IMG/VR virus record: IMGVR_UViG_3300033148_004729 | Coordinates: 1 to 60,437 of that record | Source: a virus | Lineage: Duplodnaviria; Caudoviricetes | DNA: 60,437 nt | Strand: one strand, 5' to 3' | Part shown: positions 43,077 to 60,437 of the stretch, one piece after another | Layout: every line of letters starts with the position of its first letter | Position numbering within the stretch: the stretch's first letter is position 1 | Position numbers and translations under genes: made by a program | The notes under the pieces: model-generated | Told to the model about the DNA's origin: nothing | Database searches by the model: none | What the model saw: the letters and a program-made list of their open reading frames with translations, nothing else

Positions 43077-43101
43077 CAAACCCCTCTTGTGGGCCAATGA
43101 T
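43073..43101 (+). promoter_or_regulatory. Sigma70-like promoter (leaderless for 43108)
   Basis: TTGACA-17-AATGAT; ATG follows closely with no SD. Confidence 0.5.
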
Positions 43102-43107
43102 TGAATT

Positions 43108-45132: not shown

Positions 45133-45133
45133 C

Positions 45134-45803: not shown

Positions 45804-46301
45804 GTGGGTAGACCCAAGAAGACCAGCAAGGCGGTTGAGTGGAAGACCCTGGCGACGCTGACTCAGATGTACGACGAGGCTGGAAAACCGAACCCTGGGC
45901 CAGCTATTCGGACGACCTACTCGAACATCGGTGATCGCACGGTGTACTCGCATACGCCAGGCATCGTTATGGACGATGGGAGCTTCCGGCCGGTGCAGCA
46001 TCTCCATGACCGGCATGGCGAGGTCTACATGCTTCTGTTGATGGATGCGCTTGCGGGGGTCTATGCGGCCAAGAAGACTGGCATTGAGGTCATCGAGGCC
46101 AGCTATGGCCTTTTCGAAAAGTCTCTCAGGAGGTCTCAGGAGACGGACAGCATGCTCAAGAAGGTCGACAGGGCGGCCAAGTCCATCATCGAAGAAGGCC
46201 GCTCCACGTGCCATGCACGGCCCAGGAAGAGGGTTTCGGAGCAGTCCGGACTCAAGGCTTCGCTTGGGGATATGCTGAAGGCAAAGGGGCAAGGAGCATG
46301 A
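45804..46301 (+). CDS. Hypothetical protein
   Basis: Operonic ORF. Confidence 0.55.
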   Translation: MGRPKKTSKAVEWKTLATLTQMYDEAGKPNPGPAIRTTYSNIGDRTVYSHTPGIVMDDGSFRPVQHLHDRHGEVYMLLLMDALAGVYAAKKTGIEVIEASYGLFEKSLRRSQETDSMLKKVDRAAKSIIEEGRSTCHARPRKRVSEQSGLKASLGDMLKAKGQGA

Positions 46302-46750
46302 AGCCTCCATTCCCGTGGCCACCGCCACCACCGAGGCCACCATTCGACCCCAGCAAAATTGTGGTCTACGTGGCTTGTACCAAAGAGCGATTGGACCTCG
46401 CCAGGGAGGCGATGCGATGTGTTGAGGAGGCCGGACATGTCTTGGCCTTCGACTGGACCGAGGCTATTCAGCGCGAAGACAAAATGAGTGACGAGGAGCT
46501 TTCGCTCAGGGCTGCTACCGCCATCGAACATGTCGTTTCGGCCCGTCACCTCATTCTCATCACGGCCGCGGAGATGCGTTCGGTGGGGAGCATCATCGAA
46601 GTGGGGGCTCTCCTCGGGTCCGGTGGCAACGTTATCGTGGTCGAGGAGCACGGTGAATTCGACCACTTCTTCTGCCACCATCCTCGGGTGAAGAAGGTCG
46701 CCACGCTCAACGAGGCCATCGAGTGCATCAGGGACCTTTATGGTGATTGA
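46298..46750 (+). CDS. Nucleoside 2-deoxyribosyltransferase-like protein
   Basis: VYVA, GH....DWT, G...EVGA. Confidence 0.65.
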   Translation: MKPPFPWPPPPPRPPFDPSKIVVYVACTKERLDLAREAMRCVEEAGHVLAFDWTEAIQREDKMSDEELSLRAATAIEHVVSARHLILITAAEMRSVGSIIEVGALLGSGGNVIVVEEHGEFDHFFCHHPRVKKVATLNEAIECIRDLYGD

Positions 46751-46775
46751 CAAACCAACGATGTGACACCATCTT
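46747..46775 (+). promoter_or_regulatory. Sigma70-like promoter
   Basis: TTGACA-17-CATCTT. Confidence 0.45.
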
Positions 46776-46811
46776 GGGTTGATGCGCGCATGAGTGCGCC
46801 GGAGACCTGCG

Positions 46812-47435
46812 ATGACTGTCTGGTTTACGGCTGATCCTCACGTTGGGCACGAGGCCATCATCTCGCATTCGAAGAGGCCCTTCGGGTCCACCGAGGAGAT
46901 GGACAGGGTGATCCTTCGTCATTGGGATGAGCTTTTGAAGCCAGGTGACTACTTCTGCATCCTCGGGGACATCGCGATGAATCGGAGGTGTGTCGAGCCG
47001 ACTCTCGACCGGATCCCGAGGGGGGTCCAGGTTGCGTACATCTTCGGCAACCACGACCATCATCATCGGAGGATTATCGACGCGCACCCGAAGGTTGTGT
47101 GGAGTGGGAGCCTGAAGGAGATCAAGGTCGACGGCCAGCGCATCGTGCTCCTCCACTACGCCATGCGGACGTGGCCATCGTCGCAACATGGCTCGTGGCA
47201 GCTTTTTGGCCATTCCCACGACAAGCTGCATCCGTGGGAGCGCCAGCTTGACGTGGGTGTCGACAGTGCTGCGAAGCTCGTCGGCGAGTATCGGCCGATG
47301 TCCTTCGAGGAGGTCGCACGTTTTATCCACGACGGAGAGAATCCCAAGGTGCTCGCCGGCAAGTTTGGAACCTCGCCAAGTTGGATGGGTGGAGATCATC
47401 ATGAGAGACGGTCCGGATGCCTTGACAGGGGATGA
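46812..47435 (+). CDS. Calcineurin-like metallophosphoesterase
   Basis: WFTADPH.GH, LGD, GNHD, HY, FGHSH, DVGVD. Confidence 0.9.
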   Translation: MTVWFTADPHVGHEAIISHSKRPFGSTEEMDRVILRHWDELLKPGDYFCILGDIAMNRRCVEPTLDRIPRGVQVAYIFGNHDHHHRRIIDAHPKVVWSGSLKEIKVDGQRIVLLHYAMRTWPSSQHGSWQLFGHSHDKLHPWERQLDVGVDSAAKLVGEYRPMSFEEVARFIHDGENPKVLAGKFGTSPSWMGGDHHERRSGCLDRG

Positions 47436-47520
47436 TGGTGGTAGAGTGAGCCACAACCTCAGGACTACCGAGGCACAGGGCGCTGGGCGGGAATGGGTTT
47501 GGCTTCGGGTAGGAGGCTAG

Positions 47521-47559
47521 GGGGCACTCGTTGCCGGCGAGCGAGTGCCCCTGCTTTTT
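47521..47559 (+). terminator. Rho-independent terminator
   Basis: GGGGCACTCG/CGAGTGCCCC stem followed by TGCTTTTT. Confidence 0.8.
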
Positions 47560-47696
47560 GGTGGGTTTGATGATTGGGTTGTTGGTCATTTTTGTCGTGT
47601 TCGTGTTGCTTGTGATGGACCTTTCTGAGGTCAATCACGCTGAGAGGAAGCAGGAGTTGTCGTCAGATTGACCCGCTGATGTAGAATCGCGTGGGT

Positions 47697-47918
47697 ATGA
47701 CCATTCTGCCGGTACCATCGAGGCGGGCCGACAACCTTGTGCTCATCCTTTGTGATCAGTGCAAGAAGGACATACAGGTCTCTGCTGGCGTCAAGCTCCC
47801 GAAGCCCTGGAGAGAGGTCAAGATGAACGGGTGGATCGGAGTCATGCACGCTTGCTCTGATCACTGTGAGATCGGAGTTCGAGTCCGCCACGAGAAGAAG
47901 GAGTCGCCGTGCGAGTGA
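47697..47918 (+). CDS. Zn-binding small protein
   Basis: CDQC...HACSDHC. Confidence 0.55.
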   Translation: MTILPVPSRRADNLVLILCDQCKKDIQVSAGVKLPKPWREVKMNGWIGVMHACSDHCEIGVRVRHEKKESPCE

Positions 47919-48295
47919 GAATTCTGGTCGAGGTCATCGGTGACGATGGTCGGACGGTCCGTAAGCAGAGCGCCATCATCGTCCCGCCAGCCGTGGTCAA
48001 AACCAACAGTGTCGTGTGCGAGTCCCAGGATGACATCCTGAGATTTGTCTTGGACGACGTGGTGTCATCTGCTCTTGGTGCCGTTTCGCGCCCACAGTCC
48101 CCTCAGGTCGCCCTGGAGGAGGCTCTCTTGAAAGGTGGTGGTGCCTCGGGCTCTGGCGAGCCGAACAAGCTAGAGGCGATGCTCGGGCTTGACCTGATTG
48201 ACCACATGGACGGCATCGACTCCAGGAAGGGTGGCGGCAGGCCACAGATGACGCCTAGTGACCTGGCCCTTCCACAAACGGGCACGAGGAGATGA
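47909..48295 (+). CDS. Hypothetical protein
   Basis: SD AGGAG; operonic. Confidence 0.5.
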   Translation: MRVRILVEVIGDDGRTVRKQSAIIVPPAVVKTNSVVCESQDDILRFVLDDVVSSALGAVSRPQSPQVALEEALLKGGGASGSGEPNKLEAMLGLDLIDHMDGIDSRKGGGRPQMTPSDLALPQTGTRR

Positions 48296-48564
48296 TGACC
48301 TCTTCCGAATTGGCAGAGGCACTCGAAGGTAACAACCTCAAGGTCGAGGTCGAGAAAATCATTGCATACTGCCAGGGCCAAGCCGAAACAGCCAAGGGGC
48401 AAGCGCACCGGTATGAGAAGACCGGGGGCCCTCGGGTTCGGACGACTACGATGGTCGAGAAGAGGCTTCAGACGGCTACCAGCAACTACGCTGAAGCCAG
48501 GGGCGAGGCGACTGCCTACCGTGACGTGGTTGCTGTTCTCTCGGGTTTGCTGAGGAAGATGTGA
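48292..48564 (+). CDS. Hypothetical protein
   Basis: Overlapping start/stop. Confidence 0.5.
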   Translation: MMTSSELAEALEGNNLKVEVEKIIAYCQGQAETAKGQAHRYEKTGGPRVRTTTMVEKRLQTATSNYAEARGEATAYRDVVAVLSGLLRKM

Positions 48565-48773
48565 TGGACGAGCCCATCTGGGAGCCGTGGTTCCATGGCG
48601 GCCAGGTCGTCAGGGTCGAGGGCACCGAGGTCGATGGCGTCTTCGTGGTGGACGCCGACATCGTGATGCCGGCGGTGCTACCCGAGAGCATCACACTCAA
48701 GCTCGTGCCGAATCCGCACCCTTGGGATGAGACCGTGCTGGCCATGCGGGCCTCGGCCGGTAAGCTGGTGTGA
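48564..48773 (+). CDS. Hypothetical protein
   Basis: TGATG overlap. Confidence 0.45.
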   Translation: MDEPIWEPWFHGGQVVRVEGTEVDGVFVVDADIVMPAVLPESITLKLVPNPHPWDETVLAMRASAGKLV

Positions 48774-48775
48774 GC

Positions 48776-49102
48776 ATGGCGCTATCGAAGAACTTGGAAG
48801 AAGCAGTCAGGTCCAGATGGAAGCACAAGACGATCACCATTCCGGCTCGCGACAACAAGACGTTGACGTTCAAGGCGTGGGTCCTCGGCTCGTGGGCGGT
48901 TCACGGTCGGCCACCGGCAGCTATCACGCACATCCCGACTGGGAAAATGGTTGCGATGGGTGGTACTCAGGCTGAGACGAAGGTCGCTGTCGAGGAGATG
49001 GTCGACACTGATCCAGTCCTGCTCGATTTGCCGACAGAGGCGGGCGTGATGAAGCATATCCGTTTGCTGGCGAAGTGGTCCCACAAGATTCGAGGGTTCT
49101 AG
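48776..49102 (+). CDS. Hypothetical protein
   Basis: WAVH...ITHIPTG motif. Confidence 0.55.
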   Translation: MALSKNLEEAVRSRWKHKTITIPARDNKTLTFKAWVLGSWAVHGRPPAAITHIPTGKMVAMGGTQAETKVAVEEMVDTDPVLLDLPTEAGVMKHIRLLAKWSHKIRGF

Positions 49103-49226
49103 GCGCTGAGTCTACTTTAGCTCCTACCAGTAGCCCATCATTGTCAAATCATTTTACTTAGAGATTCCCTACAGATATTGCGTAGTATGAGCGTTTTGGA
49201 TCGCGACTGGATCGCCTTTTGAACAC

Positions 49227-49255
49227 TGGGGCTGGCCAGGGAATGACCAGCCCCA
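49227..49255 (-). terminator. Hairpin terminator between convergent genes
   Basis: TGGGGCTGG/CCAGCCCCA stem just after the stop at 49265; weak U-tract. Confidence 0.55.
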
Positions 49256-49264
49256 TTCTCCTTC

Positions 49265-49777
49265 CTAGAAGTTGTAGTCGTAGTGCTCGCCGCGGTGGCC
49301 GAGGCTGATCGTTCCGCCTCGCTGGCGGACTGTGGAGCCGGGGATGCGGTACTTACCGTCCTTGCGGAGCCGGGCGGTCTTGACGGGGGCCTGGAGGTCC
49401 TCCTCGTAGGAGTACCGCTGCGTGCCCTCCCAGTGGGCTGCGAAGCCTCCGGGGTAGACCTTCAGTGCGTCCGTCTTGCCGGACCCGGGACCGTTCAGCA
49501 GGGTCGCCTTGTCGCGGCGGAAGTACACCGTCTTGCCCGAGGGCGAGAACCCGACGATGGTCCCCGCTCGGGAATCGGACCAAGCGTGCTCCGTGCAGCC
49601 GTCGCCGGCCTTGTGGGTGACTTTCTCGACCCGCACGGTGTCCCACTTGGGGGCCACGAGGTCGCGGTGCTTCTCGGCCTCCTTCTTCGTGAAGAAGGTG
49701 AAGGTTCGCCCCTGGGCGAACTCCAGGGTTGCGACCACGATCCACAGGGTCAGGGCCTCTCTTGCCTTCTGCGTCAT
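49265..49777 (-). CDS. Conserved phage hypothetical protein
   Basis: GDG.T...WSD...GTI...SGKTV...LRK.G.YR...HYDYNF; strong SD. Confidence 0.7.
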   Translation of the reverse strand: MTQKAREALTLWIVVATLEFAQGRTFTFFTKKEAEKHRDLVAPKWDTVRVEKVTHKAGDGCTEHAWSDSRAGTIVGFSPSGKTVYFRRDKATLLNGPGSGKTDALKVYPGGFAAHWEGTQRYSYEEDLQAPVKTARLRKDGKYRIPGSTVRQRGGTISLGHRGEHYDYNF

Positions 49778-49810
49778 TTGCGGCCTCCTTCCTTTCTCTC
49801 TCACGCCTAA

Positions 49811-49838
49811 AATATGTGCATGAATGAGCGTCTGTCAG
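49811..49838 (-). promoter_or_regulatory. Promoter of the TTGACAGACG class
   Basis: CTGACAGACGC...CATATT, 16-nt spacer. Confidence 0.6.
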
Positions 49839-49982
49839 TAGCAAAAACGCAGTATTTACGGTGATGTACGAAGTCGCATACGACCTCGCATATGACCTTG
49901 TATGCGACTTCGCATATTGGAGTGGATTGTCTGGATTGAAAGCTGAATGATTACGTTGAGTGCGACGCGCGCGACGGAAAGA

Positions 49983-50261
49983 TCACTTCTTCACGAGGTA
50001 GGTGCCGATTCGGCATGGATCGTTGGGGGATTTTTCGATTTGGCCGTGTGAGTAGCAGGGGGTCTCGGGGTACCAGGGTCGGTCGTGGATGGCGCACGAG
50101 TAGGAGCCAGGCTTGTCGCCTTGGAGGTGTGGGCATCGCTCGGGTTGCCCGAGCTTGAAGCCGATGCCTTTGAGGTTGTTGTCGGCCAGGCCGAGTTCTG
50201 GATCCACAACGATGACGACCATCGAGGTCAGGCAGCAGTGGCCGCATCGAAGGCAGATCAT
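49983..50261 (-). CDS. YkgJ-like CxxCxxCC cysteine-cluster protein
   Basis: CLRCGHCC, CPHL, CAIHD. Confidence 0.7.
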   Translation of the reverse strand: MICLRCGHCCLTSMVVIVVDPELGLADNNLKGIGFKLGQPERCPHLQGDKPGSYSCAIHDRPWYPETPCYSHGQIEKSPNDPCRIGTYLVKK

Positions 50262-50527
50262 CAGTCTGCCCACAGCGGTAGGTCGTCTTTCAAGATGTCG
50301 CAGATGTGCTGGTAGACGGACATGCCACGCTTGTCGTTGCGTTCCTTGCAGGTGAGCATCGCCGCACGGTTCGCTGCGTAGGCACCGAGGACTTCTGTTG
50401 CTGCGACGTACCTGGGTCGTCGCTTCGGGAAGATCTCGCGTGCCGTCTTCACCGGGTGGAAATGGACGCGCGCCCAGAACGCCATCAGGGTCTTGTTGTC
50501 CAGCCTGTCGAGGTCGTAGGTCGTCAT
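50261..50527 (-). CDS. Hypothetical protein
   Basis: SD GAGGAG before MTTY; ends in C..I...LP.WA. Confidence 0.6.
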   Translation of the reverse strand: MTTYDLDRLDNKTLMAFWARVHFHPVKTAREIFPKRRPRYVAATEVLGAYAANRAAMLTCKERNDKRGMSVYQHICDILKDDLPLWAD

Positions 50528-50666
50528 GACTCCTCTTTCCATCATGGCCACCGGGTGATGATGGCCTCGGCGATGACGAACAGGATGATGATGACGCCCA
50601 GGGCGAGCCCCATCGGCACGAGGTCGAGCATCAAGTCGAAAGGTTTCTCATCGTCGGGTTTTCGGC

Positions 50667-50885
50667 CTAGTGTGGGCATGGCCACCTGGCTTCTTGCTTT
50701 CGGCTGACGTAGTAGCCGTCCTCCTTGTAGGCGGCGTGCTCCCCGATACCGGGAACGTCGTCGTCGGCGAAAGCGATGGCAGCTCTGGTGGCGTCGTCGT
50801 ATGCCTCGGGGCTGTCGACGGCTTTGTCGAGCATCCTTGGGGCGCCGACTGTGACGAAGATGCTCTCCTCGTCGGGTGCCTTCAC
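50667..50885 (-). CDS. Hypothetical protein; frame open further upstream, start unclear
   Basis: AVDSPEAYDD..RAAI.F. Confidence 0.5.
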   Translation of the reverse strand: MKAPDEESIFVTVGAPRMLDKAVDSPEAYDDATRAAIAFADDDVPGIGEHAAYKEDGYYVSRKQEARWPCPH

Positions 50886-51017
50886 CCTGGCAGCGTACTG
50901 CTGTGTTTCGTCGACCCACAGGATACGAATGCTGATTTTTCCGCTGTCTCGTTGTGCCCTTTTCGCTGCTCCTCTCAGGTGATTTTTCGGTGACGGCCGG
51001 GAGCCTGACCTTCCTCA

Positions 51018-51680
51018 TCAGTCCTCTTCGCCGAACGACGCCAGGAGGGTGTTGTAGGCCTCAAGGAACGCCGGGACCTCTTCCAGCTTGACGTACACGT
51101 CGTCAATTTGGATTCGAAGCATTGGGCCTTCTCCGTCCGTGGCGATCTCGGCGCTAAGTTTTTGGTTTCCAGTCTTGATGCTCAGGTGCTTGTTGTCGCT
51201 GTAGAAGCTGGATGCCACTCCGGCTTTTTCAAGGGAATGCTGCACGTTCCTGGCACGGATAATCTTTCGCTGTCTCTTTTCCTTGGCCATTTTGACGGAC
51301 TCGCGGATAAGGTCGAGACGCTTCAAGATGCACTCGTGGATACCTTTGAGGTTGGTCGAGCCATTCTCGTTGACCTTGAAGCGACGTCCCATCTTGCTGA
51401 TACTGCGATTGTGGATGTCGGAGGCCTCGACCTTCAAGCCAGCGATGTCGCCATAGAACGTATAGTTCGCAGCGACGATGGCGATGCTCACTATGTCGTA
51501 GTGCGCTTCTGTACCGGCTGTCGCATCAATACGGCAACCGTAGTCCCAGCTCTTGAAGACGTATTTGACGTGTCCGTGTTGCCCCTTGCCAGGAGATGTT
51601 TTTTGGAGTTGGGCTTGGAGCTTCTTCAGCCACGACTTCTCGGATTCATTATTCTTTAGTTTGTATCCGTAGTTTATCAT
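51018..51680 (-). CDS. Hypothetical protein (lower GC)
   Basis: 220-aa ORF with SD GAGGA. Confidence 0.65.
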   Translation of the reverse strand: MINYGYKLKNNESEKSWLKKLQAQLQKTSPGKGQHGHVKYVFKSWDYGCRIDATAGTEAHYDIVSIAIVAANYTFYGDIAGLKVEASDIHNRSISKMGRRFKVNENGSTNLKGIHECILKRLDLIRESVKMAKEKRQRKIIRARNVQHSLEKAGVASSFYSDNKHLSIKTGNQKLSAEIATDGEGPMLRIQIDDVYVKLEEVPAFLEAYNTLLASFGEED

Positions 51681-51689
51681 GACGTCCTC

Positions 51690-52283
51690 TTAGCTCTTCG
51701 GCCCGGAGCAGACGAAGATCTTCTCCTTGGAGTCTGGGACTGGTTGAAGCTCGACGGACCAGAAGTGCTCCACAAGGACAGCCTCAAGCTCGTCGCGGCC
51801 CTTCGCTCCTGGGGGCAGGTAGGGCCTCGGATCGGAGGCCAGGTTCGCAACCAAACGGCCACCTTCGGCGAGAGCCCCTTGCAATTGTTGGAGGGTGCCG
51901 AGGAGAGCCGTGAGTGATGGCTGGACGTTCATGACGTTCGAAGCGAGGACCGTCTCGTACTGCTTCGAGAGCGCATCAGGAGAGAGCAGACCAGCTTGGA
52001 AGGCTTCGTAGAACTTCGAGGCCCTTCCGCTTGCTTCGCCTTCTTCTGGCGCCCACTCGTAGCCGACGACCTCGTACCCCTCGTTGCGAAGCTCCTCGAC
52101 CTGAACAGCGTCGACCCCGCACCCGAAGTCGAGCATCGAGCCAGCTTTCTCGGGCGGTAGGTTTTCCCGTAGCCATCTCGGCACGAGAGGACCGGGGCCG
52201 CCACCGACGCGCCGTCGGCATGTGGCGCCCATCCTTTTGTACTCGTTCTTTGTTGGTTCGTGTTTCATGGCGTGACTTCTCAC
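51690..52283 (-). CDS. Class I SAM-dependent methyltransferase
   Basis: MLDFGCG, V.GYE, YE.VLASNVMNVQ; start at GTG 52283 or ATG 52268. Confidence 0.8.
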   Translation of the reverse strand: MRSHAMKHEPTKNEYKRMGATCRRRVGGGPGPLVPRWLRENLPPEKAGSMLDFGCGVDAVQVEELRNEGYEVVGYEWAPEEGEASGRASKFYEAFQAGLLSPDALSKQYETVLASNVMNVQPSLTALLGTLQQLQGALAEGGRLVANLASDPRPYLPPGAKGRDELEAVLVEHFWSVELQPVPDSKEKIFVCSGPKS

Positions 52284-52289
52284 GTCACT

Positions 52290-52317
52290 AACATAAACCA
52301 TAATGAGCATCTGTCAA
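52290..52317 (-). promoter_or_regulatory. Promoter of the TTGACAGACG class
   Basis: TTGACAGATGC...TATGTT, 16-nt spacer. Confidence 0.7.
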
Positions 52318-52379
52318 GAGGTGGTGCTTTCGATGGTGGTGATCTGGTGTCGGTAGGTAAGAAGCTTTGATTTCGTTCG

Positions 52380-53333
52380 TTACGCTGCTTTCTTCTGGGG
52401 CTCTTCGTTGGCCACGTAGCCGCCTCTTTCGGCGGCCTTCCGGAGCCACGTCACGGCCTTCTTTGCCTTGCTGGCGGCCTTGTAGAAGTACCGTTGGTCG
52501 TCTTCGAGGGCTCCCAGCCAGTGGCCGAGGTACTCAGCGTGCTGGCAGCGTCCATCAAGCTGGAACTCGGCCCCGAGGAACGCGGCCGTCAACTCGGCGA
52601 CAAGCTCCTCTTCGGCGTAGGCCTCCTTGCCGACGATGGTTCGGGCGCCGATGCCTCGTGCGAGTCGACTTTTGTGGCCGGTTGCGTGCCCGTACTCGTG
52701 CAGGTGCGTCAAGTAGAACTCCTCGATGGCTCTGTAGAGCTTCGCGGGTGGGATCCGAACTTCATCGATCAGGGGCACGTAGCACGCCTTGTCGCCGCCG
52801 TACTTGAGCCCGAAGCTGCTGCCCTCTTGTGCGCATGCGAGGAACCGCTCGACCCTGGCGTCACGTTCGTGCTCGGGAAGCTCTTCGGGGAGGTGTTTGA
52901 TGTACCTTGTGGGTTCCACTGTCGTTTGCTCGACGTTGTAGACGACCTGGGCACCGGACATCCAGAAGCGCACCACCTTGGGGTCGCCGTTGTTGTCGAG
53001 GACCGCCTGACCGTCCTTGTCGGTCTTGAGTCGCTCATCGGGGCGGAACCAGATTACGGCTCGACCGTTGTCCCACTCGTCTTGTTTGACATGGCCACCA
53101 AGGGCCTGGGCTTGCTTCCACGTCAGCCAGAGGGGATAGCTGTATTCCTTCACCGACTGGAGCGCGCCCAGGTACAGCGCGTTGACGCCGTTGTAGACGC
53201 GGCCTGTCTTTGCGTTCCGTTGGGCCCCGAGGGTCTGCCAGGGCTTCGCCCATGGCGCTACGCCTGCCTTGATGCTCTCCAGCAGGGTTTCCGCCTGGGC
53301 CTCGTAAGCATCCTGTGTTTTTGCCTTCATCAT
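52380..53333 (-). CDS. ardC: ArdC-family antirestriction protein (ssDNA-binding domain plus zincin-like domain)
   Basis: PW.KPW, N..TGR.Y.GVN.L.L, WLTWKQA..LGG.V, VYNVEQ, A.Y.P..D.V..P, HEYGHATGH.SRL.R, YA.EELVAEL.AAFL. Confidence 0.92.
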   Translation of the reverse strand: MMKAKTQDAYEAQAETLLESIKAGVAPWAKPWQTLGAQRNAKTGRVYNGVNALYLGALQSVKEYSYPLWLTWKQAQALGGHVKQDEWDNGRAVIWFRPDERLKTDKDGQAVLDNNGDPKVVRFWMSGAQVVYNVEQTTVEPTRYIKHLPEELPEHERDARVERFLACAQEGSSFGLKYGGDKACYVPLIDEVRIPPAKLYRAIEEFYLTHLHEYGHATGHKSRLARGIGARTIVGKEAYAEEELVAELTAAFLGAEFQLDGRCQHAEYLGHWLGALEDDQRYFYKAASKAKKAVTWLRKAAERGGYVANEEPQKKAA

Positions 53334-53357
53334 AACGCCCTCCCTGGTTGCATTACC

Positions 53358-53386
53358 AGTGTGGTCACATGGGATGCGTCTGTCAA
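53358..53386 (-). promoter_or_regulatory. Promoter of the TTGACAGACG class
   Basis: TTGACAGACGC...CACACT, 17-nt spacer. Confidence 0.6.
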
Positions 53387-53548
53387 GGCTTGCTCTGGTC
53401 AATCCGGTGCTTATGTTGAAGGTAATGGAGGTCGAGGATGCCTCCCTCAGCATCTACAAACTCGGTGAGGGTTGAGGAGGTGCTTGGGGGCTGAGAGAGC
53501 CGTGTGATAGATTCATATTTCGTAGGCGGCTCAAGATGGGAGCATGGG

Positions 53549-54799
53549 ATGAGTCTATCCAGTCAGCTTGATGATGCCCTTGCCGAATGGGCAATGGCGA
53601 AGCCCGGAGAGAAGCGTGAGCGTAAGGACGGGTACATCTGGCAGAAGCAGCGAAGCGGAGCGTGGAAGCGCCTCCACAAAGCCGCTGGCCGCAAAGCTGG
53701 GGCCGAGGAGGGTGCCGCCGTCGAGGCTGCCAGCAAGGCCATGAACGCCAAGGACGCGCCGGTGCCGAAGGGGCGCATCTGGATTGACCATGTTCCGGGG
53801 CTTCCGAACGACACCCAGAAGGCTCACATCGACACGGAGACCGGCGACTACAAGCCGGAGCGCAAGGCTCTCCACAGGAAGATCATCGAGGGCTTCCTGG
53901 CTGGGAATATGGTCAAGGGGGAGTTCGTTCCTGCTCAGGTTGTACCTGAAGGTCATCAGCCTGAGACACTGTTCATGATGGGCACTACGGCTTCGGGTAA
54001 GAGCAGCGCACGCAGAGAGGTCGATCCGGACCCGTTCAAGAAGTTCGGTGTTGTCGAGGTCGATCCGGATGCCATCAAAGCGATGCTTCCGGAGTACCAA
54101 AAGTCGATTTCCATGTCGGCTCGGGACGCTGCGAAGATCACTCATGAGGAGTCCTCTGACATCGCCGATCAGATCCGGAAGCTCGCCCTGGAGCAGAACA
54201 AGAACATCCTCGTTGACGGGACCGGCAAGACACTCGATACGGTCGAGAAGAAGATCAAAGAGGCGAAGGCCCGAGGTCATCACATTTCTGCGCTTATGCC
54301 GCACGTCCCGCTGGATCAGTGCAAGGAACGGGCGGACGACCGTGCTGAGAAGAAGGGGCGGTACGTGCCTCACTTCGTCATCGAAAAGTGCGCCGAGAAG
54401 GTGGGCAAGAACTTCATGGCGCTGAAGGACACGTTCGACACCTTCACTCTGTTCGACAACAGGACATTGGAAGGTGGCAAGAGGAAGCCACCAACACCAA
54501 TCATGAAGAAGCCGCCGGAGCCGCCGAAAGTCATTGATTCGGACTACTTCAAGCTGTTCTTGAGGGAGTCTGGCATCACGATGGAGTGGATCCGGTCCAA
54601 GGGGAATCTGATGACCGAACAAGATCAAGAGAAGATGGACTCACGAGAAGGTCCACCGCCGAAGAAGAAGCGCGCCGTCGACCCGGAAGCGTACGATGCG
54701 TGGTTCATCAATACCATCGAGGCCGAGAATGCGGCCAACGACGCGGAGCCCGCGGACTACAAGGTCGGCGAAGGTGTCGAGGAAGTCCTCGGTGACTAG
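53549..54799 (+). CDS. Zeta-toxin-family P-loop kinase
   Basis: MG..ASGKSS, VDPDAIK..LPEY, HEESS.IA, LVDGT, R...R....GRYVP, LFDN. Confidence 0.88.
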   Translation: MSLSSQLDDALAEWAMAKPGEKRERKDGYIWQKQRSGAWKRLHKAAGRKAGAEEGAAVEAASKAMNAKDAPVPKGRIWIDHVPGLPNDTQKAHIDTETGDYKPERKALHRKIIEGFLAGNMVKGEFVPAQVVPEGHQPETLFMMGTTASGKSSARREVDPDPFKKFGVVEVDPDAIKAMLPEYQKSISMSARDAAKITHEESSDIADQIRKLALEQNKNILVDGTGKTLDTVEKKIKEAKARGHHISALMPHVPLDQCKERADDRAEKKGRYVPHFVIEKCAEKVGKNFMALKDTFDTFTLFDNRTLEGGKRKPPTPIMKKPPEPPKVIDSDYFKLFLRESGITMEWIRSKGNLMTEQDQEKMDSREGPPPKKKRAVDPEAYDAWFINTIEAENAANDAEPADYKVGEGVEEVLGD

Positions 54800-54992
54800 C
54801 TCTTAGGGTTGCGAGGGCATGGTAGGATCAGGACATGATGAAGCGTCGCTATGAGAGGCCGACCTTCAAGCGCGTCAAGGGGCTCGATTTCGTGACGCGC
54901 TACCTCCCCCCGTGTACGGTCTGCGGGGTCCAGAGGACGTGTCAGCGTTGTGGTTCGTGTACTGCCTGTCACGGCTGCCGTTGACGACGATT

Positions 54993-55280
54993 TCAACTGA
55001 CCTTATCCATGAAGGCGCGGAGGGCCTCGGCGCAGAGCCGAGAGTAGTGCGAGGTCATCCCGTGGCGGTTTCCCAGGGAGCGCCTCTTGCCGTCTTCGAC
55101 GACGTAACAGCGATCCCACACGTCGGGACTCTCACCCTTCTGCTCGACGAAGAACTCGACCCATACGCCCGGGAGCGCGCCCATGCGTATCTGGCCACTG
55201 TCGGTCGCGAGGTGGCTGGCGTGGCCTGCCACATTGCCGACGAAGGTGTCGAATAGCTCGGCGGGGGTCTTGTCGGTCAT
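54993..55280 (-). CDS. Hypothetical protein
   Basis: SD AGGAGG. Confidence 0.6.
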   Translation of the reverse strand: MTDKTPAELFDTFVGNVAGHASHLATDSGQIRMGALPGVWVEFFVEQKGESPDVWDRCYVVEDGKRRSLGNRHGMTSHYSRLCAEALRAFMDKVS

Positions 55281-55636
55281 GATTGGACCTCCTTATCGAG
55301 GCATTCCGGGTGGACGTGCCATGCTCCATGTTCGTCTGTCACGACGGCGTAGCCGTGGGGTTTGGTGAAGCGGTCGAAGGTGAAGCTCCGGCCGAGTAGC
55401 TCACGTTCCATTTCGGAGATTGGCCGGGCTACGGTGACGGGCTCATCCTTGCGGAGGGTTCGCCACTCCTCGGCGGCGGCCTTTTCGCTCCTGGCTTCGG
55501 CGAGGGCCTCAACCCTGTACTGCGCGACGCAGCAGACGTTCAGGCCATTGGCGTGGTCGAGGCATTCCTGGCAGCATGGACGGCCACATTCGGGACACTC
55601 CGTGGTGGTGGATTCGTAGCAGGACGCACATTTCAT
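55277..55636 (-). CDS. Zn-finger protein
   Basis: CASC, CPEC, CQEC. Confidence 0.6.
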   Translation of the reverse strand: MKCASCYESTTTECPECGRPCCQECLDHANGLNVCCVAQYRVEALAEARSEKAAAEEWRTLRKDEPVTVARPISEMERELLGRSFTFDRFTKPHGYAVVTDEHGAWHVHPECLDKEVQS

Positions 55637-55902
55637 GACGCCTCTTCACGCAGGAACCACGGAGCTTCGCTGACGGTGCCGTCGGGCTCGATGCGGAATC
55701 CTCCAGAGCGCCAGCACGTTTTGTCGTCAACGCTCTTGAACACGTCACCGATGACGGAGCCGTCGTCCTGCTCGTCGCCTACCTCGAAGAAGTATTCGGC
55801 GAATAGCACGGTCCACGCATTCGAGGAGCCGGTGCTCTCGCGGCACACGGCCTCCCACTTCCTGAGCGTGTCGTCTGCTGCTGCTGTGCATGACCATCCC
55901 AT
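55633..55902 (-). CDS. Hypothetical protein
   Basis: SD; YFFE.G.EQ.DG...G.V...F.I.PDG. Confidence 0.65.
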   Translation of the reverse strand: MGWSCTAAADDTLRKWEAVCRESTGSSNAWTVLFAEYFFEVGDEQDDGSVIGDVFKSVDDKTCWRSGGFRIEPDGTVSEAPWFLREEAS

Positions 55903-55920
55903 GACGCTCTCCTTCCTCGT

Positions 55921-56157
55921 TCACGATGAACTATTCAATCTCTCCTTGACCGTCTTCTCGTGGTAGCGGCGGTCAAGCTCATCGCGGCACGTTGTGCCGC
56001 AGGTGCCTTCGAGCTTGTCGAAGTTCTTTCCGCTCCAGAAGTGGAGCACGCAGTTCCAGCAAGCGACTTTGCCGCACACGCGACAGGTCCAGGGTTGGCC
56101 GCTGTGACCTTGTGAGGTCTGCGCCCTGCACCCAGCCTGTCTAGCGGATTTCGACAC
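55921..56157 (-). CDS. Cys-rich small protein
   Basis: CRVCG, CWNC, CGTTC; SD GGGAG before GTG. Confidence 0.55.
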   Translation of the reverse strand: MSKSARQAGCRAQTSQGHSGQPWTCRVCGKVACWNCVLHFWSGKNFDKLEGTCGTTCRDELDRRYHEKTVKERLNSSS

Positions 56158-56176
56158 GTTATCTCCCTGCACTTGG

Positions 56177-56237
56177 AATATAATCATGCAAAAAGCGTCT
56201 GTCAACCGCTTGACAGTGCGCCATTGGTGGATAAGTT
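56177..56237. promoter_or_regulatory. Back-to-back divergent promoters
   Basis: Minus strand: TTGACAGACGC with TATATT (17-nt spacer, 56177-56205). Plus strand: TTGACA-16-TAAGTT (56210-56237). Confidence 0.7.
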
Positions 56238-56242
56238 TGAGT

Positions 56243-56585
56243 TGGAGGCGGGAGCCTCTGGGAAGGAAAGTGGTTCTAGTTCGAGTCTGGGTCGCGGTTT
56301 CTGACCCTTCGTAAGTCGGGCGACGGCTCGCAGTGAGGTCAGAGCGGTGGTGGCGCCGCCATCGTGTCAGAGGCCGCAGACCTGGGTTCGAGCTTCGAAA
56401 AGGATAGACGGTTCCCTTTCCCCTCGCCCGGCTGTAGACCGGGTGGCACAAAACCGAGGGGTGCGTTGCCGGGAGGTTCAATTCCTTGGGGGACCACTGA
56501 TTGGCTTCAAATTGTTGACTGTGGATAGGCGACAGGACTGGCTCCTGTTCGCCTTATCGTCGCATGGCAGTTGACATCAGAGGCC
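56243..56585 (+). ncRNA. Candidate large structured non-coding RNA
   Basis: GNRA hairpin at 56244-56259; 28-bp rod 56278-56305/56366-56394 with 7 G-U pairs; tRNA-like domain; 3' rod at 56513-56576. Confidence 0.65.
56410..56496 (+). tRNA. Atypical tRNA-Tyr(GTA)-like element lacking a canonical D arm; CCA not encoded
   Basis: Acceptor GGTTCCC/GGGGACC plus A73; anticodon arm CCCGG-CTGTAGA-CCGGG; T arm GAGG-TTCAATT-CCTT; long variable region. Confidence 0.6.
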
Positions 56586-56612
56586 GGTGTGGTCGGAAAG
56601 AACAGGGGCGTC

Positions 56613-58100
56613 ATGCCAACGACACCGAGGAAGAAGAAGGGCTCTGCTTTGCCCGCCTTCGTGGTGGACAAGAAGGGGCTAGAGAAGATCATGGCGAGGC
56701 GCGGAAAGCACTTCGCTGTCATCGAGCTTGTACAAAACTCGCTCGACGAGGATGTGACCAAGGTCGATGTCGTTTTGGAGTCCCACGGTAAGCGCGGTCG
56801 ACACACCCTCCGAGTGACTGACGATTCGCCTGAGGGGTTCGCTGACATCCGGCACGCCTATACCCTCTTCGCCGAGTCCAACAAGAAGGCGGACCCGACG
56901 AAAATGGGCAGGTTCAACCTTGGGGAGAAGCTCGTGGTGGCAGCCTGTGACAAGGCAACAATCACGACCACCTCGGGGTGCGTCAAGTTCGATGGCGATG
57001 GGCGCGTGAACGGTCGGAAGAAGACCAAGGTCGGTTCCGTCTTCGAGGGCGTCATCAGGATGACTCGTGAGGAGGCGAAGAAGACGTCCGAGGTCTCTAA
57101 ACAGGTGCTCGTACCCGAAGGGGTCACGTTGACCTTCAACGGTGAGGTCATCGTTTCCAGGCAACCTGTTGCCCGGTTTGAGGCAATTCTCCCAACGGAG
57201 ATTGCTGATGACGAGGGTTACCTGCGACCGACCAAGCGCAAGACGACCGTCAGTGTCTATGAGCCTTGCGATGGAGAGGTCCCGGCCCTGTATGAGGTGG
57301 CGCTTCCAGTCGTTGAGACGGGCGACCAGTGGCACATCAGCATTGGCCAGAAAGTGCCGCTGAACATGGACCGGGACAATGTGACCCCGGCGTTTCTTCG
57401 GCGCGTGCGAACTCTGGTTCTCAACGAGATGGTCGACAAGCTGCCAGAGGACGACGCTGCGGCCTCCTGGGTCGGGGAGGCCCTCGGGGACCCCGGCGTA
57501 TCCAACGAGGCCGTGGGTGCTGTTCTGACGAAACGACATGGGGAGAAGCGGGTCATCAGGGATCCGTCGGACCCCGAGGCCAACAACCTGGCAGTGAGCG
57601 AGGGCTATTCCATCATCGAATCCCGCAGCTACACGAAGGGGCAGTGGGAGACCATCAGGCGTTCTGGTGCAGCGAAGCCTGCCGGACAGGTGACACCGAG
57701 CCCGAAGCCATACGGACCTGACGGTCGTGAGCCCAAGGAGATCCCGCAGGAGGAGTGGACCAATGGCATGAATGAGTCGGTTGGCTACGTCAAGGCGCTC
57801 GCCAAGGTTCTCCTCGGGTGCTCCATTTCTGTTCGGATCGTTGATGACACGGAGTGGAGGTTCTCGGCCACGTACGGCAAGGGTCGTCTGACTCTGAACA
57901 AGGGGTGTCTCGGCGGCGGGTGGTTCGAACGCGGGCCGTCCGTGATCGTCCACGAGCTTCTCATCCACGAGTTCGCGCACCACTTCGAAAACAACCACTT
58001 GAGCAGCGGGTACCATGACGCCTGCTGCTCGCTCGGGGCGAAGCTCGTCCAGTTGGCGATGGATGATCCGGCCTTTTTCTTGAAGTGGTGGAAGTCATGA
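56613..58100 (+). CDS. GHKL (HSP90-like) ATPase fused to a C-terminal HExxH zincin-like domain
   Basis: ELVQNSLD, V.DDSPEGF, GRFNLGEK, GS.F; LLIHEFAHH....H. Confidence 0.8.
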   Translation: MPTTPRKKKGSALPAFVVDKKGLEKIMARRGKHFAVIELVQNSLDEDVTKVDVVLESHGKRGRHTLRVTDDSPEGFADIRHAYTLFAESNKKADPTKMGRFNLGEKLVVAACDKATITTTSGCVKFDGDGRVNGRKKTKVGSVFEGVIRMTREEAKKTSEVSKQVLVPEGVTLTFNGEVIVSRQPVARFEAILPTEIADDEGYLRPTKRKTTVSVYEPCDGEVPALYEVALPVVETGDQWHISIGQKVPLNMDRDNVTPAFLRRVRTLVLNEMVDKLPEDDAAASWVGEALGDPGVSNEAVGAVLTKRHGEKRVIRDPSDPEANNLAVSEGYSIIESRSYTKGQWETIRRSGAAKPAGQVTPSPKPYGPDGREPKEIPQEEWTNGMNESVGYVKALAKVLLGCSISVRIVDDTEWRFSATYGKGRLTLNKGCLGGGWFERGPSVIVHELLIHEFAHHFENNHLSSGYHDACCSLGAKLVQLAMDDPAFFLKWWKS

Positions 58101-58161
58101 GACGGCCCAGACGAGGAGGGGTGGTTCTCTGGTCCGTTGGCTCCATTTCCAGGAGGTGATC

Positions 58162-58371
58162 ATGAGACAACGTGGGGATACGCCGAAATGTTGCGAGAAA
58201 GGAGAAAACTTCATTGAGTGGCACGAGGTGAGAGAATTGGTCGGTGTTGAGGATGATGGGTGGACCATGCTCGTCGCCGACAACATCAATCACCCGTCAT
58301 TCACTGGAGAGAACCACCAAGAGGTGATCCGGTTCTGTCCCTTCTGCGGGGAGCGCCTGCCGGAACCTTGA
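58162..58371 (+). CDS. Small Zn-ribbon protein
   Basis: KCCE...FCPFCGERL. Confidence 0.6.
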   Translation: MRQRGDTPKCCEKGENFIEWHEVRELVGVEDDGWTMLVADNINHPSFTGENHQEVIRFCPFCGERLPEP

Positions 58372-58395
58372 CAGACGGCCATTGTTGGTTATCCT
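58368..58395 (+). promoter_or_regulatory. Promoter of the TTGACAGACG class
   Basis: TTGACAGACGG...TATCCT, 16-nt spacer. Confidence 0.65.
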
Positions 58396-58419
58396 GATGT
58401 GAAGCAGCGGGAGGTAGGA

Positions 58420-59088
58420 GTGGCGGAAGAAGCCGAAGCATCTGTGGTTGTAGAGTCGAACGTCGCCATCATGGCGGTGCAGCACCTTGCGGAACAGGGG
58501 CGTAGCAAAGGCCAGTCGGCGAGGCTCATTGCCTCCAAAATACAGAGTGTTGTCGAAAACAGGTGGGGCACTTCCAAGGTACCTCGTTTCGAGGATGCCG
58601 AGGGTGGCGGTTGGCTCATCGACGTGAGTCCGGCGTTCGATGACGAGGCCATGTACGCCGTGGTCCGTTCGAAGGATGGTGTCCGGACGGTGACCCATAT
58701 CACCGAGGAGGAGGAGGCCATCAGGATGGCCATGCCAGAGGCACCTCCTGGGTCAGACGGCAAATCTCATCTTGGTGAGATGCCCTTGGCAACCGAGGTC
58801 GGCCTGGACCCGGCGAATCCCTCGGGGCCGTCGCTTGGTCAGCAGAACGTCATCCTCACCGAACAGCTTCGCGAGGCCGTCGAGGTCGTCGAGAAGCTCA
58901 CGCCGAAGGCCGACAGTCCGGCGCTTGTCCGCGTGAAGGAGGGTGAGGACAAGTGGCAGACGTTTTCGGTCATGTACAACACTGTAGGTGCGCTCGTGCA
59001 GGAGCTTTTGTCCAAGGGAACTACCCCCGACGACATCGAGGTCTGGATCAGCCGGCGGAAGCCGAAAGTCAAGGTGGAGCTGGAGTAG
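58420..59088 (+). CDS. Hypothetical protein
   Basis: SD before GTG 58420. Confidence 0.6.
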   Translation: MAEEAEASVVVESNVAIMAVQHLAEQGRSKGQSARLIASKIQSVVENRWGTSKVPRFEDAEGGGWLIDVSPAFDDEAMYAVVRSKDGVRTVTHITEEEEAIRMAMPEAPPGSDGKSHLGEMPLATEVGLDPANPSGPSLGQQNVILTEQLREAVEVVEKLTPKADSPALVRVKEGEDKWQTFSVMYNTVGALVQELLSKGTTPDDIEVWISRRKPKVKVELE

Positions 59089-59837
59089 TGGATCACGCCG
59101 CTCCACCACGGGGGCCCGACGGGCTTGACCTTGATATTCCGAGGAACGAAGAGGGGCTCCTCCAACCGATTTCGTGGGTGCAGCTATATGCGCTCTGGCT
59201 TGGCATGGCAACGAAGACGATCCCCGTGGAGGCGGCCTTCGACCTGTCCAAGTTGCCAGAGGTGCTCAAGGCTGACGACATCGTGGCGGTTCAGCCCATG
59301 ACGGCGCCGTGTGGGAAGTGGTGGAAGGAGGCAAAGACGAAGACGGCGATTGCGCTCAAGGTACCAGAGAGGCACCTCTTCCCAAACGTCGATGAGGAGA
59401 GTCGGCGCCAGTTCGTCGATGCGATTTTCAAACACAATTCTTCGTCGCGAGGGGTGTGCGACGAGTGTCCAGGCGTGGGCGAGTGCGACGACGACACTGA
59501 GCCCAAGGAGTGCGGGCCCAAGCTCTGTGAGCACGGCAGTGTCGAGGGGCAGTGTCCGTGGCCCGTAGGCGAGTGTGAGCACGCCGCGCCTGAGGACTAC
59601 ATATACGTCGATTACAAGGAATCCGGAGTAAAGGAATACGGAGTAGATGCCTTTCAAGCTCGGGTCGAGTATCCGAAGGTGAAGATGAAGCGTTCTCCGA
59701 AGCCTTTCTTCGAGGGTGGGCGTTTCATCGAGTACGGGTGGGGGTGGTCTGTCTATTGCCTTGCCAAGCCGAAGATGGACCCCGTCACCGGTGAGGTCAC
59801 CTGGGAGGACGACCCTGACACTATGGCGAGGTGGTGA
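59088..59837 (+). CDS. Hypothetical protein carrying a T4 gp23 capsid-like peptide
   Basis: ADDIVAVQPMTAPCG. Confidence 0.55.
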   Translation: MDHAAPPRGPDGLDLDIPRNEEGLLQPISWVQLYALWLGMATKTIPVEAAFDLSKLPEVLKADDIVAVQPMTAPCGKWWKEAKTKTAIALKVPERHLFPNVDEESRRQFVDAIFKHNSSSRGVCDECPGVGECDDDTEPKECGPKLCEHGSVEGQCPWPVGECEHAAPEDYIYVDYKESGVKEYGVDAFQARVEYPKVKMKRSPKPFFEGGRFIEYGWGWSVYCLAKPKMDPVTGEVTWEDDPDTMARW

Positions 59838-60067
59838 TGGACACGGTGCGGTGGTTCAAGGCGCAAGCGAAGAAGCTCCTCAAGGCGCACAGGGCCGGAG
59901 ACAACGAGGCCACGAAGCGCATCCGGAGGAAGGTTCGGAACATGAATCACGTTCACCTCCAAAAGGTGCAGCACGTCGTTGCCGTCGAGGCTGGCTTTGC
60001 CAATTGGAAAGCCCTCGTCGACGCCGACGACAAACAGCGACAGGCCTGTATCGAGACCTTGGGATGA
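59837..60067 (+). CDS. Small helical protein (K.QAKKLLK...Q..VA.E.GF..W..L family)
   Basis: Motif I recognise as an N-terminal module of some ankyrin/glyoxalase-related proteins. Confidence 0.55.
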   Translation: MDTVRWFKAQAKKLLKAHRAGDNEATKRIRRKVRNMNHVHLQKVQHVVAVEAGFANWKALVDADDKQRQACIETLG

Positions 60068-60339
60068 CTAGAGTGGTTTCCATTCGTGAGCCGAGTCTCG
60101 TGAAGGTGTTTGCCGAGGTGTTCCGAGAGAAGCTGAAGAAGATGAAGGAGGAGGAGATGTCGAAGGATACGATGGAGTATGTGGTCAAGAAGCCGGTCAC
60201 CAAAGTCGTCTTGATTGACGCTTTGATTCGCTGTACGAGCTGCGGCGGCTACAAGCCGGCCTCCGAGGTTGGGTTCCGTCGCATGAAAGATGGCGTGCTC
60301 CGGAACCAGCCTCAGTGCAAAGCCTGTCGGGCTGGGTGA
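60064..60339 (+). CDS. Zn-finger small protein
   Basis: CTSC...QPQCKAC. Confidence 0.55.
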   Translation: MTRVVSIREPSLVKVFAEVFREKLKKMKEEEMSKDTMEYVVKKPVTKVVLIDALIRCTSCGGYKPASEVGFRRMKDGVLRNQPQCKACRAG

Positions 60340-60437
60340 TGTCCCGCGATATCGACTGGGTGAGCTACATTGGGCGGCTCGTCTTTTGCTATGGGTGTGG
60401 TCGATTCGGGGTGCCCGCGAAGAACGGTCGTCCTCCT

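Follow-up and report, generated by a model that had tools for sequence, protein, structure and literature searches.

Irregular phage tRNAs and structured RNAs that are linked to tRNAs are kinds of molecules that are already known. The tRNA genes of huge phages number in the dozens, and tRNAs of phages counter host defences that cleave tRNAs. Among the Y RNAs of bacteria, YrlA has a tRNA-like domain, and animal mitochondria contain tRNAs that lack the D arm and have reduced T loops. Allo-tRNAs are irregular tRNAs in which the acceptor branch has an 8/4 or 9/3 form (Mukai et al. 2017, PMC5389517). According to the same source, some irregular tRNAs are charged yet unused in translation, and irregular tRNAs may occur in polycistrons and near toxin-antitoxin genes. 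In MALAT1-mascRNA (PMC8457004) and in the tRNA-miRNA RNAs of gammaherpesviruses (PMC4337559), a tRNA-like unit is joined to another structured RNA. Phage tRNAs with changes in the anticodon loop have been described (PMC10264068), and the tRNA-Tyr of phage T5, placed on a strong promoter, evades the tRNA-Tyr depletion by retron-Eco7 (PMC11555353).

The element described here differs from the known families. It is located in one viral contig of IMG/VR (60,437 bp), which was analysed over its whole length (“the window”) and has a CheckV completeness of 32%. Between a candidate promoter and a gene for a GHKL-type ATPase, the plus strand contains a short hairpin, a long rod, and an irregular tRNA-like unit, which are called “the module” below (Table 1).

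Table 1. Features of the module and its surroundings; positions refer to the window.
Feature	Position	Strand	Description
Divergent promoter TTGACA-17-TATATT	56177-56205	-	11/12 consensus positions; serves small Cys-rich gene
Small Cys-rich gene	55921-56154	-	behind its own TTGACA-17-TATATT promoter
Candidate sigma-70-type promoter TTGACA-16-TAAGTT	56210-56237	+	predicted start near G56244; sole such match in the window, 0 expected in shuffles
5′-terminal hairpin GGAGGC-GGGA-GCCTCT	56244-56259	+	6 bp, GGGA (GNRA) loop
Rod domain	56278-56394	+	28-bp helix closing a three-way junction
Alternative long-range helix, 9 bp	56269-56277 / 56490-56498	+	competes with acceptor stem
Irregular tRNA-Tyr(GUA)-derived unit	56410-56496	+	~87 nt; identified by reading, covariance model, and comparison with phage tRNA-Tyr
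Acceptor stem GGUUCCC / GGGGACC	56410-56416 / 56489-56495	+	7/7 paired; 8 bp including U56417-G56488
Anticodon arm CCCGG-CUGUAGA-CCGGG	56427-56443	+	GUA anticodon; 5-bp stem and 7-nt loop with U33, as in canonical arms
T arm GGAGG-UUCAAUU-CCUUG	56472-56488	+	flush with acceptor stem; loop fits UUCRANY
Structured spacer	56503-56627	+	irregular hairpin 56503-56585 and hairpin enclosing ribosome-binding site/start codon; z -1.95, 7/200 shuffles
GHKL-type ATPase gene (HATPase_c_3, HEFAH motif)	56613-58100	+	widespread in huge phages

The module shares with GOLLD/ROOL, YrlA, and tmRNA that a structured RNA adjoins or mimics a tRNA. The initial annotation had gone further and had likened it to large RNAs of phages in which tRNAs are embedded. 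This kinship was not borne out, since no match to GOLLD, ROOL, or any other Rfam family of this kind, including YrlA, was found at E<=10, and the module comprises ~250 nt, compared to the 500-800 nt of the large phage RNAs. As in the mitochondrial tRNAs that lack a D arm, a short connector joins the acceptor/T branch and the anticodon arm of the unit, but its T loop is canonical, and the mitochondrial mode of ARAGORN finds nothing. The similarity to allo-tRNAs consists of a 12-bp branch that can be drawn as 8/4, an anticodon stem of 6 bp, and a long extra arm, and both the unit and the irregular tRNAs are derived from phages/metagenomes (PMC5389517). In addition, a zeta-toxin-like gene lies 1.4 kb upstream of the unit, which can be compared with the toxin-antitoxin proximity mentioned there. 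In contrast, the D stem of the allo-tRNAs of that source is long and has a tetraloop, and their identity is mostly serine, whereas the unit has no D stem-loop at this place and has Tyr features. MALAT1-mascRNA (PMC8457004) and the gammaherpesvirus RNAs (PMC4337559) resemble the module in having one joint transcript with ends that are generated by tRNA-processing enzymes, a processing that is predicted here; however, these systems are eukaryotic or from animal viruses, while the module is from a bacterial virus. Like the T5 tRNA-Tyr, the unit would be a Tyr-specific phage tRNA gene with a promoter of its own, but the T5 tRNA is canonical (PMC11555353).

The window has a G+C content of ~60%, and its plus strand is G-rich throughout. 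It contains tail genes for a tape-measure protein and a baseplate-J protein. The relatives of the latter, with identities of 50-66%, include complete genomes of 186-198 kb, and the window is therefore taken as a fragment of a ~190-kb phage. No cultured relative was found (blastn versus GenBank phages, 0 matches), and tblastn with the ATPase led to one uncultured phage of 485 kb. Two complete relatives, G025 and G027, have 37 and 31 tRNA genes, respectively, which are located elsewhere in the genome; the set of G025 includes a canonical tRNA-Tyr. ORF 34-3702 of the window encodes an intein-containing nucleotidyltransferase of the CCA-adding/PcnB family, and an ArdC-like gene is located ~3 kb from the RNA region.

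The promoter motif that had been proposed upstream of the hairpin is present, while the promoter itself remains a candidate. Its -10 hexamer TAAGTT agrees with the consensus at 3/6 positions, which is the reason why the site is missing from the automated promoter scan. The predicted start coincides with the first base of the GNRA hairpin. The nearest plus-strand gene upstream ends at 54799 and is followed by minus-strand genes, so that the transcription unit of the ATPase gene must start within the gap from 56167 to 56612. Within this gap, the sole good -35 hexamer with a usable -10 is that at 56210. For a second TTGACA, at 56571, a usable -10 is missing, and the ATPase gene thus probably relies on the upstream promoter. 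The stretch from the RNA to the ATPase gene contains no called intrinsic terminator on the plus strand. Judging from this arrangement, the 56210 promoter probably also drives the ATPase gene, which is probably co-transcribed with the RNA.

The 5′-terminal hairpin and the rod were recovered exactly as they had been described in the initial annotation. The rod pairs 56278-56305 with 56366-56394, i.e. 16 + 12 bp around a bulged A56378, with seven G-U pairs and no mismatches. The multibranch cap that had been noted on top of it is a three-way junction with the hairpins 56306-56338 and 56344-56365. No other two-segment helix of the window, on either strand, is as long as the rod with its 28 bp (the runner-up has 22 bp), and this length was reached in 0/40 plus-strand and 0/223 both-strand dinucleotide shuffles of the whole window, the maximum in the latter being 27. 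Uninterrupted runs of 16 bp are not rare, with three occurrences on the plus strand of the window.

The claim of strand specificity also held. As a plus-strand RNA, the rod domain (56266-56400) has a folding energy of -66.7 kcal/mol (z -4.25, 0/200 shuffles), compared to -42.3 kcal/mol for the minus strand (z -2.15, 6/200 shuffles), and the plus strand folded as ssDNA yields a z of -1.58 (16/200 shuffles). The rod domain has a strand-specific excess of structure. Ranked solely by GC-corrected folding energy, the region comes only 4th among 6030 windows of 140 nt. The top-ranked folds of the window are nearly all on the plus strand, and the G-richness of this strand favours plus-strand folds in general. 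The rod departs from a perfect inverted repeat at seven sites, each of them a transition that yields G-U on the plus strand; a sign test of “7 G-U vs 0 A-C” was discarded as independent evidence because the helix search rule permits G-U and forbids A-C. A ribozyme core at the three-way junction, hammerhead or other, was rejected (no core motifs, no Rfam match), and so was a 6S-like or SRP-like rod (wrong size, no Rfam match).

For the tRNA-like unit, the acceptor/T branch amounts to 12 bp. In a 7/5 reading it has a G-G mismatch at the base of the T stem (4/5 pairs), while the 8/4 reading, obtained with the canonical T stem-loop enforced, is fully paired; neither reading is more probable than the other. 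The discriminator is A56496, and CCA is not encoded. The unit does not have a standard D arm: only 10 nt separate the acceptor stem from the anticodon stem, and 28 nt separate the anticodon arm from the T arm. The lowest-energy fold of the isolated 87 nt (-37.2 kcal/mol) combines the acceptor stem, the anticodon arm, a long extra arm, and the T arm. However, CCCCUCG (56420-26) is complementary to CGAGGGG (56455-61), and in an alternative fold of -36.3 kcal/mol these segments form a 7-bp D-like stem, which is stacked under the anticodon stem and accompanied by an 11-nt bulge. The strand order of this alternative appears similar to that of the D arm in the G025 tRNA-Tyr, a canonical tRNA, but with the anticodon arm inside the D loop. 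When the full transcript is folded, the 9-bp long-range helix breaks the acceptor stem in the structure of minimum energy (-121.7 vs -111.8 kcal/mol with the tRNA-like fold enforced). A split tRNA with its 5′ half upstream of the rod was considered and rejected, as no matching acceptor/D strands were found by eye.

Standard tRNA finders do not recover the unit. ARAGORN reports no tRNA gene with default settings, and nothing in its tmRNA, intron, and mitochondrial modes; relaxed to -ps80, it gives only a cloverleaf of low score that is drawn differently. The tRNA model RF00005, searched alone at E<=10, did not match the unit, while the control was matched in 14/14 genomes. Bacterial tRNA-Tyr is characterized by G1-C72, A73, the GUA anticodon, and a long variable arm, and these features are present in the sequence of the unit.

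To compare the module with other genomes, single-sequence covariance models of the tRNA-like unit (R1) and of the rod (R2) were used. In 20 whole records of phages that carry the ATPase, R1 had one match, which ARAGORN calls tRNA-Tyr(GTA). This is the first gene of a nine-tRNA array in G007 (equal to L030 1504-1585, minus strand). The anticodon arms of the unit and of this gene are identical at 17/17 positions, GGTTCAATTCC of the unit is identical in the G007 gene, and the T loop is common to both, including an identical GGUUCAAUUCC. A second phage gene, the tRNA-Tyr of L033 (4097-4180), has the identical 17-nt anticodon arm. Searching for this arm as a pattern yielded five loci, i.e. the two tRNA-Tyr genes and three coding-like loci without a tRNA call. 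The unit has G1-C72 and A73 in common with both tRNA-Tyr genes, and CCA is encoded by neither the unit nor the G007 gene. A count of tRNAs with an encoded CCA was set aside because its loci overlapped. In contrast, 5/7 pairs of the acceptor stem differ between the unit and the G007 gene, with pairing kept throughout, the gap between acceptor and anticodon stems is 10 nt instead of 19 nt, and that between anticodon and T arms is 28 nt instead of ~14 nt. The unit stands alone behind its own candidate promoter, whereas the genuine phage tRNA-Tyr genes are located in arrays. By sequence comparison, the tRNA-like domain of the initial annotation is established as a genuine tRNA derivative, i.e. a remodelled tRNA-Tyr(GUA).

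The RNA had been described as unannotated, and known families indeed do not account for it. Rfam gave no match at gathering score, only one irrelevant match in the whole window at E<=1, and, at E<=10 for 55900-56700, only two chance matches of 14-15 bits on the minus strand. YrlA (RF02553), searched alone at E<=10, did not match, and no Ro/TROVE gene was found in the window, which represents 32% of the genome.

Homologs were also sought, in records from which very close relatives may be missing, and neither the surroundings of 108 ATPase homologs nor 31 records of related phages contained any. A 271-nt region gave nothing in an nhmmer search of 28 ATPase-homolog loci, and R1 and R2 found no homolog of the rod or the unit at 28 viral and 80 metagenomic loci, where the ATPase homologs are all <=53% identical. 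In the 20 whole records of ATPase phages, there was nothing beyond the one true tRNA-Tyr, and in 11 records of baseplate-J relatives there was nothing at all. For R2, no match at E<=0.01 was obtained outside the window in any set, including the loci with tRNA-Tyr genes; within the window it matched its own source with 163 bits and the antisense of this source with 17.2 bits (E 0.033). The R1 matches elsewhere are only true tRNAs, and a weak match in L002/L020 was discarded because it falls within an ORF. An exact-pattern scan of viral contigs with the 25-nt 3′ end and the two rod arms found none, and 185,579 species genomes contained no exact match to the 22-nt 3′ end or to a pattern of anticodon arm plus T loop. 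In the complete relative G025, the ATPase gene (54% identity) lies a few tens of bases behind a TTGACA-17-TAGAAT promoter, and there is no structured RNA. The absence of the element from this relative indicates that it is lineage-specific and not a conserved family; on the genomes compared, it is an acquisition of this lineage between promoter and gene.

The region has no coding signature, in agreement with the earlier statement that no convincing ORF covers it. The GC3 values of the six ORFs that overlap the region are 0.45-0.64, compared to 0.72-0.77 for nine real genes. For a 186-aa ORF on the minus strand over the region, no homolog was found, and the real gene inside it encodes the C-terminal Cys-rich protein of ~77 aa, the relatives of which were likewise sought without success. 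A 75-aa ORF on the plus strand had four matches, namely itself and three long proteins (696-3741 aa) that matched short stretches of the query only. All in all, the observation in the initial annotation is confirmed and stands up statistically, and its interpretation is partly supported.

From these results, we infer a possible route of transcription, processing, and function, which we put forward tentatively and with slightly less than even confidence. Positions 56244-56496 of the plus strand would represent a lineage-specific, promoter-driven RNA module, from which processing by RNase P and CCA addition free a tRNA-like cargo, with the hairpin and the rod as a scaffold. Transcription would start at the candidate promoter near G56244, and the GNRA-capped hairpin at the extreme 5′ end would shield the end of the transcript from decay. 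Host RNase P would cleave 5′ of G56410, and trimming of the 3′ end at A56496 would be followed by addition of CCA, possibly by the phage enzyme of the CCA-adding/PcnB family that is encoded by ORF 34-3702. The products would be the tRNA-like RNA of ~87 nt and an upstream RNA of ~165 nt with the hairpin and the rod, both split from the ATPase mRNA. The function would lie with the tRNA-like unit as the cargo, which would be an irregular tRNA-Tyr or else a mimic of tRNA-Tyr, while hairpin and rod would serve stability and processing.

The processing steps are deduced from the established substrate rules for RNase P (a 12-bp stack) and RNase III (at least two turns of dsRNA). RNase P substrates have a coaxial stack of acceptor and T stems of ~12 bp and a 5′ leader, and the unit has a 12-bp acceptor/T branch that is preceded by the rod. 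RNase III requires about two turns (at least 20-22 bp) of near-continuous dsRNA; the rod, 28 bp with one bulge, is long enough and may contain a cut site. The presence of a gene of the CCA-adding/PcnB family in the window and the 31-37 tRNA genes in complete relatives count in favour of this mechanism, as does the T5 tRNA-Tyr as a precedent with its own strong promoter. Counting against it are the lack of homologs in the records searched, the plain leader in G025, the failure of the unit in ARAGORN and RF00005, the broken acceptor stem in the lowest-energy full-length fold, the weak -10 hexamer, and the rank of only 4th by energy.

A different history would make the locus the relic of a small tRNA array that has decayed and serves at most as a passive leader, the unit being a pseudogene that has lost half of its D arm and the rod arms being former T-arm regions that pair by chance. 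We consider this unlikely, although it has several observations on its side. Three T-loop-like motifs, GTTCGAGTC, GTTCGAGCT, and GTTCAATTC, occupy positions 56279, 56386, and 56476 of the plus strand (a span of 206 nt); their spacing of 107 and 90 nt is similar to that of adjacent tRNA genes, and each arm of the rod contains one of them. A small tRNA array may thus have been the source of the module, although the window as a whole contains 19 such motifs compared to 18.4 expected. With relaxed settings, ARAGORN draws a weak cloverleaf (56218-56298) that uses the first motif, and a short blastn of the rod region versus the tRNA loci of relatives gave many T-loop strings of 9-14 nt among the first 25 of 275 matches listed. 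That the unit fails the tRNA models (ARAGORN, RF00005) and that the element is absent from relatives would also fit decay. However, a relic leaves unexplained that the 28 pairs extend 18 bp past the T-loop motifs, a length reached in 0/223 shuffles, and that the acceptor and anticodon stems are fully paired. The anticodon arm is still identical at 17/17 positions to working phage tRNA-Tyr genes while the remainder has diverged, and the middle unit does not yield a second cloverleaf. The same region could instead act in cis, as a structured 5′ region of ~370 nt that controls the ATPase operon through stability, through cleavage by RNase III, or through alternative pairings in which the ribosome-binding site is hidden, without any separate RNA product. 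Such a leader would agree with the lack of a called plus-strand terminator before the ATPase gene and with the probable dependence of this gene on the upstream promoter, given the TTGACA at 56571 without a usable -10. The spacer is structured as well: a hairpin encloses the ribosome-binding site and the AUG, and 56541-50 has two alternative pairing partners, 56530-39 and the Shine-Dalgarno region (56600-09). Nevertheless, the homologous gene has a short, plain leader in G025 and many relatives, no Rfam cis-regulatory family matches, and a leader has no obvious need for the anticodon arm of a tRNA-Tyr and a full acceptor/T branch, so that we judge a purely cis-acting role to be decidedly unlikely.

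A role at the level of DNA, either as an attP core from a host tRNA-Tyr gene or as an origin or single-strand hairpin signal, appears to be the least probable. The 3′ portions of tRNAs are common phage attachment sites, but neither the 22-nt 3′ end nor the arm-plus-T-loop pattern has an exact match in the 185,579 species genomes, no integrase was present among the neighbours scanned, and the 5′ acceptor strand, which is superfluous for an attP, is present. Two DnaA-box-like 9-mers flank the region, but six such sites versus 5.6 expected are in the range of chance, and a DnaA-box cluster was rejected for this reason; an ArdC-like gene is found 3 kb away, and the ssDNA fold is unremarkable (z -1.58). 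An insertion flanked by direct repeats was also rejected, since only repeats of 9-13 nt of chance quality were found. Only slightly more credit is due to a chance structure that has no biological role, which we regard as very improbable. The G-rich plus strand, the predominance of plus-strand folds at the top of the ranking, and the three 16-bp runs on this strand would be compatible with it, but the 28 bp unmatched in 223 shuffles, the z of -4.25, and the position of the rod next to a unit of demonstrable tRNA origin and to a promoter-like site argue against it.

Within the proposed promoter-driven module, the unit could even be a working tRNA-Tyr with a three-way junction, a more specific model that we regard as improbable. 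In this model, the D stem would be re-formed by CCCCUCG/CGAGGGG, and the unit would have its own promoter, be released by RNase P, and receive a CCA tail from the phage enzyme. It would consist of two arms of ~12 bp as in the normal L shape, with the GG-containing bulge of 11 nt in place of the D loop. Such an RNA would decode Tyr codons or act as a decoy, and host nucleases that deplete tRNA-Tyr by recognition of the normal geometry of D arm and anticodon would miss it. If this were true, it would be a D-arm-less tRNA outside of mitochondria and a new anti-defence design.

More generally, a promoter-driven, D-arm-less derivative of tRNA-Tyr in which all other helices are retained would escape the standard finders. 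If the unit is functional, it would widen the range of accepted tRNA architectures in bacterial systems and offer a route to a tRNA or decoy that defence nucleases do not recognize. A rod with ends that are set by a tRNA-like processing signal would, if this is the case, be a rare example from a bacterial virus. If the module is instead a relic, it would still illustrate the remodelling of tRNA genes in phages and their reuse as leaders.

Two minor observations concern the promoter region and the anticodon arm. The -35 hexamers of the minus-strand and plus-strand promoters lie back to back and form a 7-bp inverted repeat, and the TTGACA-16/17-TAnnnT design recurs at 52317, 58368, and 56205 in a scan of 41000-60437. 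Position 37 is a G in the unit and in the tRNA-Tyr genes of G007 and L033, and an A in that of G025.

The tRNA-Tyr(GUA)-derived unit of the RNA module (56427-56443), the tRNA-Tyr(GUA) of the related huge phage G007 (locus record L030, 1544-1560, minus strand) and a second phage tRNA-Tyr (locus L033, 4124-4140) share the anticodon loop CUGUAGA, in which position 37 is a G. In the complete relative G025, the tRNA-Tyr loop is CUGUAAC and carries A37. The G37 loop of the three phage tRNA-Tyr-type arms may be a phage-specific variant. Within the module, the rod domain's apical hairpin (56314-56326) is 85% complementary, over 13 nt, to the tRNA-like unit on its 5′ side (56421-56433). This complementarity could represent a long-range contact, or it could have arisen by chance.

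Additional features of the window
Feature	Position	Strand	Remarks
Class-II nucleotidyltransferase, CCA-adding/PcnB poly(A) polymerase family	34-3702	+	frame open to base 1
Intrinsic-terminator-like site	47520-47552	+	13-bp stem with 8 G-C pairs, then T run
140-nt windows folding at least as well as the rod region	49361-49520, 52181-52340, 49821-49960, 5821-5960	all +	GC-corrected
ArdC-like anti-restriction N-domain and zincin peptidase	52380-53453	-	divergent from 53504-54799
Zeta-toxin-family kinase	53504-54799	+	divergent from the ArdC-like gene
DnaA-box-like 9-mers GGTGGATAA and TGTGGATAG	56226-56234 and 56520-56528	+	one on each side of the RNA module
GHKL-type ATPase (HATPase_c_3)	56613-58100	+	domain match; sacsin-like N-terminal match weak

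Each of the two DnaA-box-like 9-mers flanking the RNA module is immediately preceded by a TTGAC[AT]GTG motif. Across the whole window, the number of such 9-mers is at chance level (6 observed versus 5.6 expected). The strongest intrinsic-terminator-like site within the scanned part of the window is found at the beginning of a region (47456-49265) that is poor in long ORFs. In L030, the non-coding region of about 300 nt (1586-1860, minus strand) upstream of the G007 tRNA-Tyr, the first tRNA of its array, likewise had a strong predicted fold, with a z value of -3.07 (0/100 shuffles), and its comparison with the window's rod revealed no likeness.

The ATPase encoded downstream of the RNA module contains an HExxH-like motif (HEFAHHFE). 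It matched no family in PHROG or PADLOC. Relatives number 28 in viral and 142 in metagenome contigs. Every one of them has about 43-53% identity, and many are located on contigs of 100-485 kb.

An intein that carries a LAGLIDADG domain splits the reading frame of the nucleotidyltransferase at the window start. CCA-adding and A-adding activities are indistinguishable for this protein, because its NCBIfam equivalog matches are all far below their cut-offs. The zeta-toxin-family kinase is weakly similar to the XopAJ/AvrRxo1 subfamily (34 bits versus a cut-off of 300).
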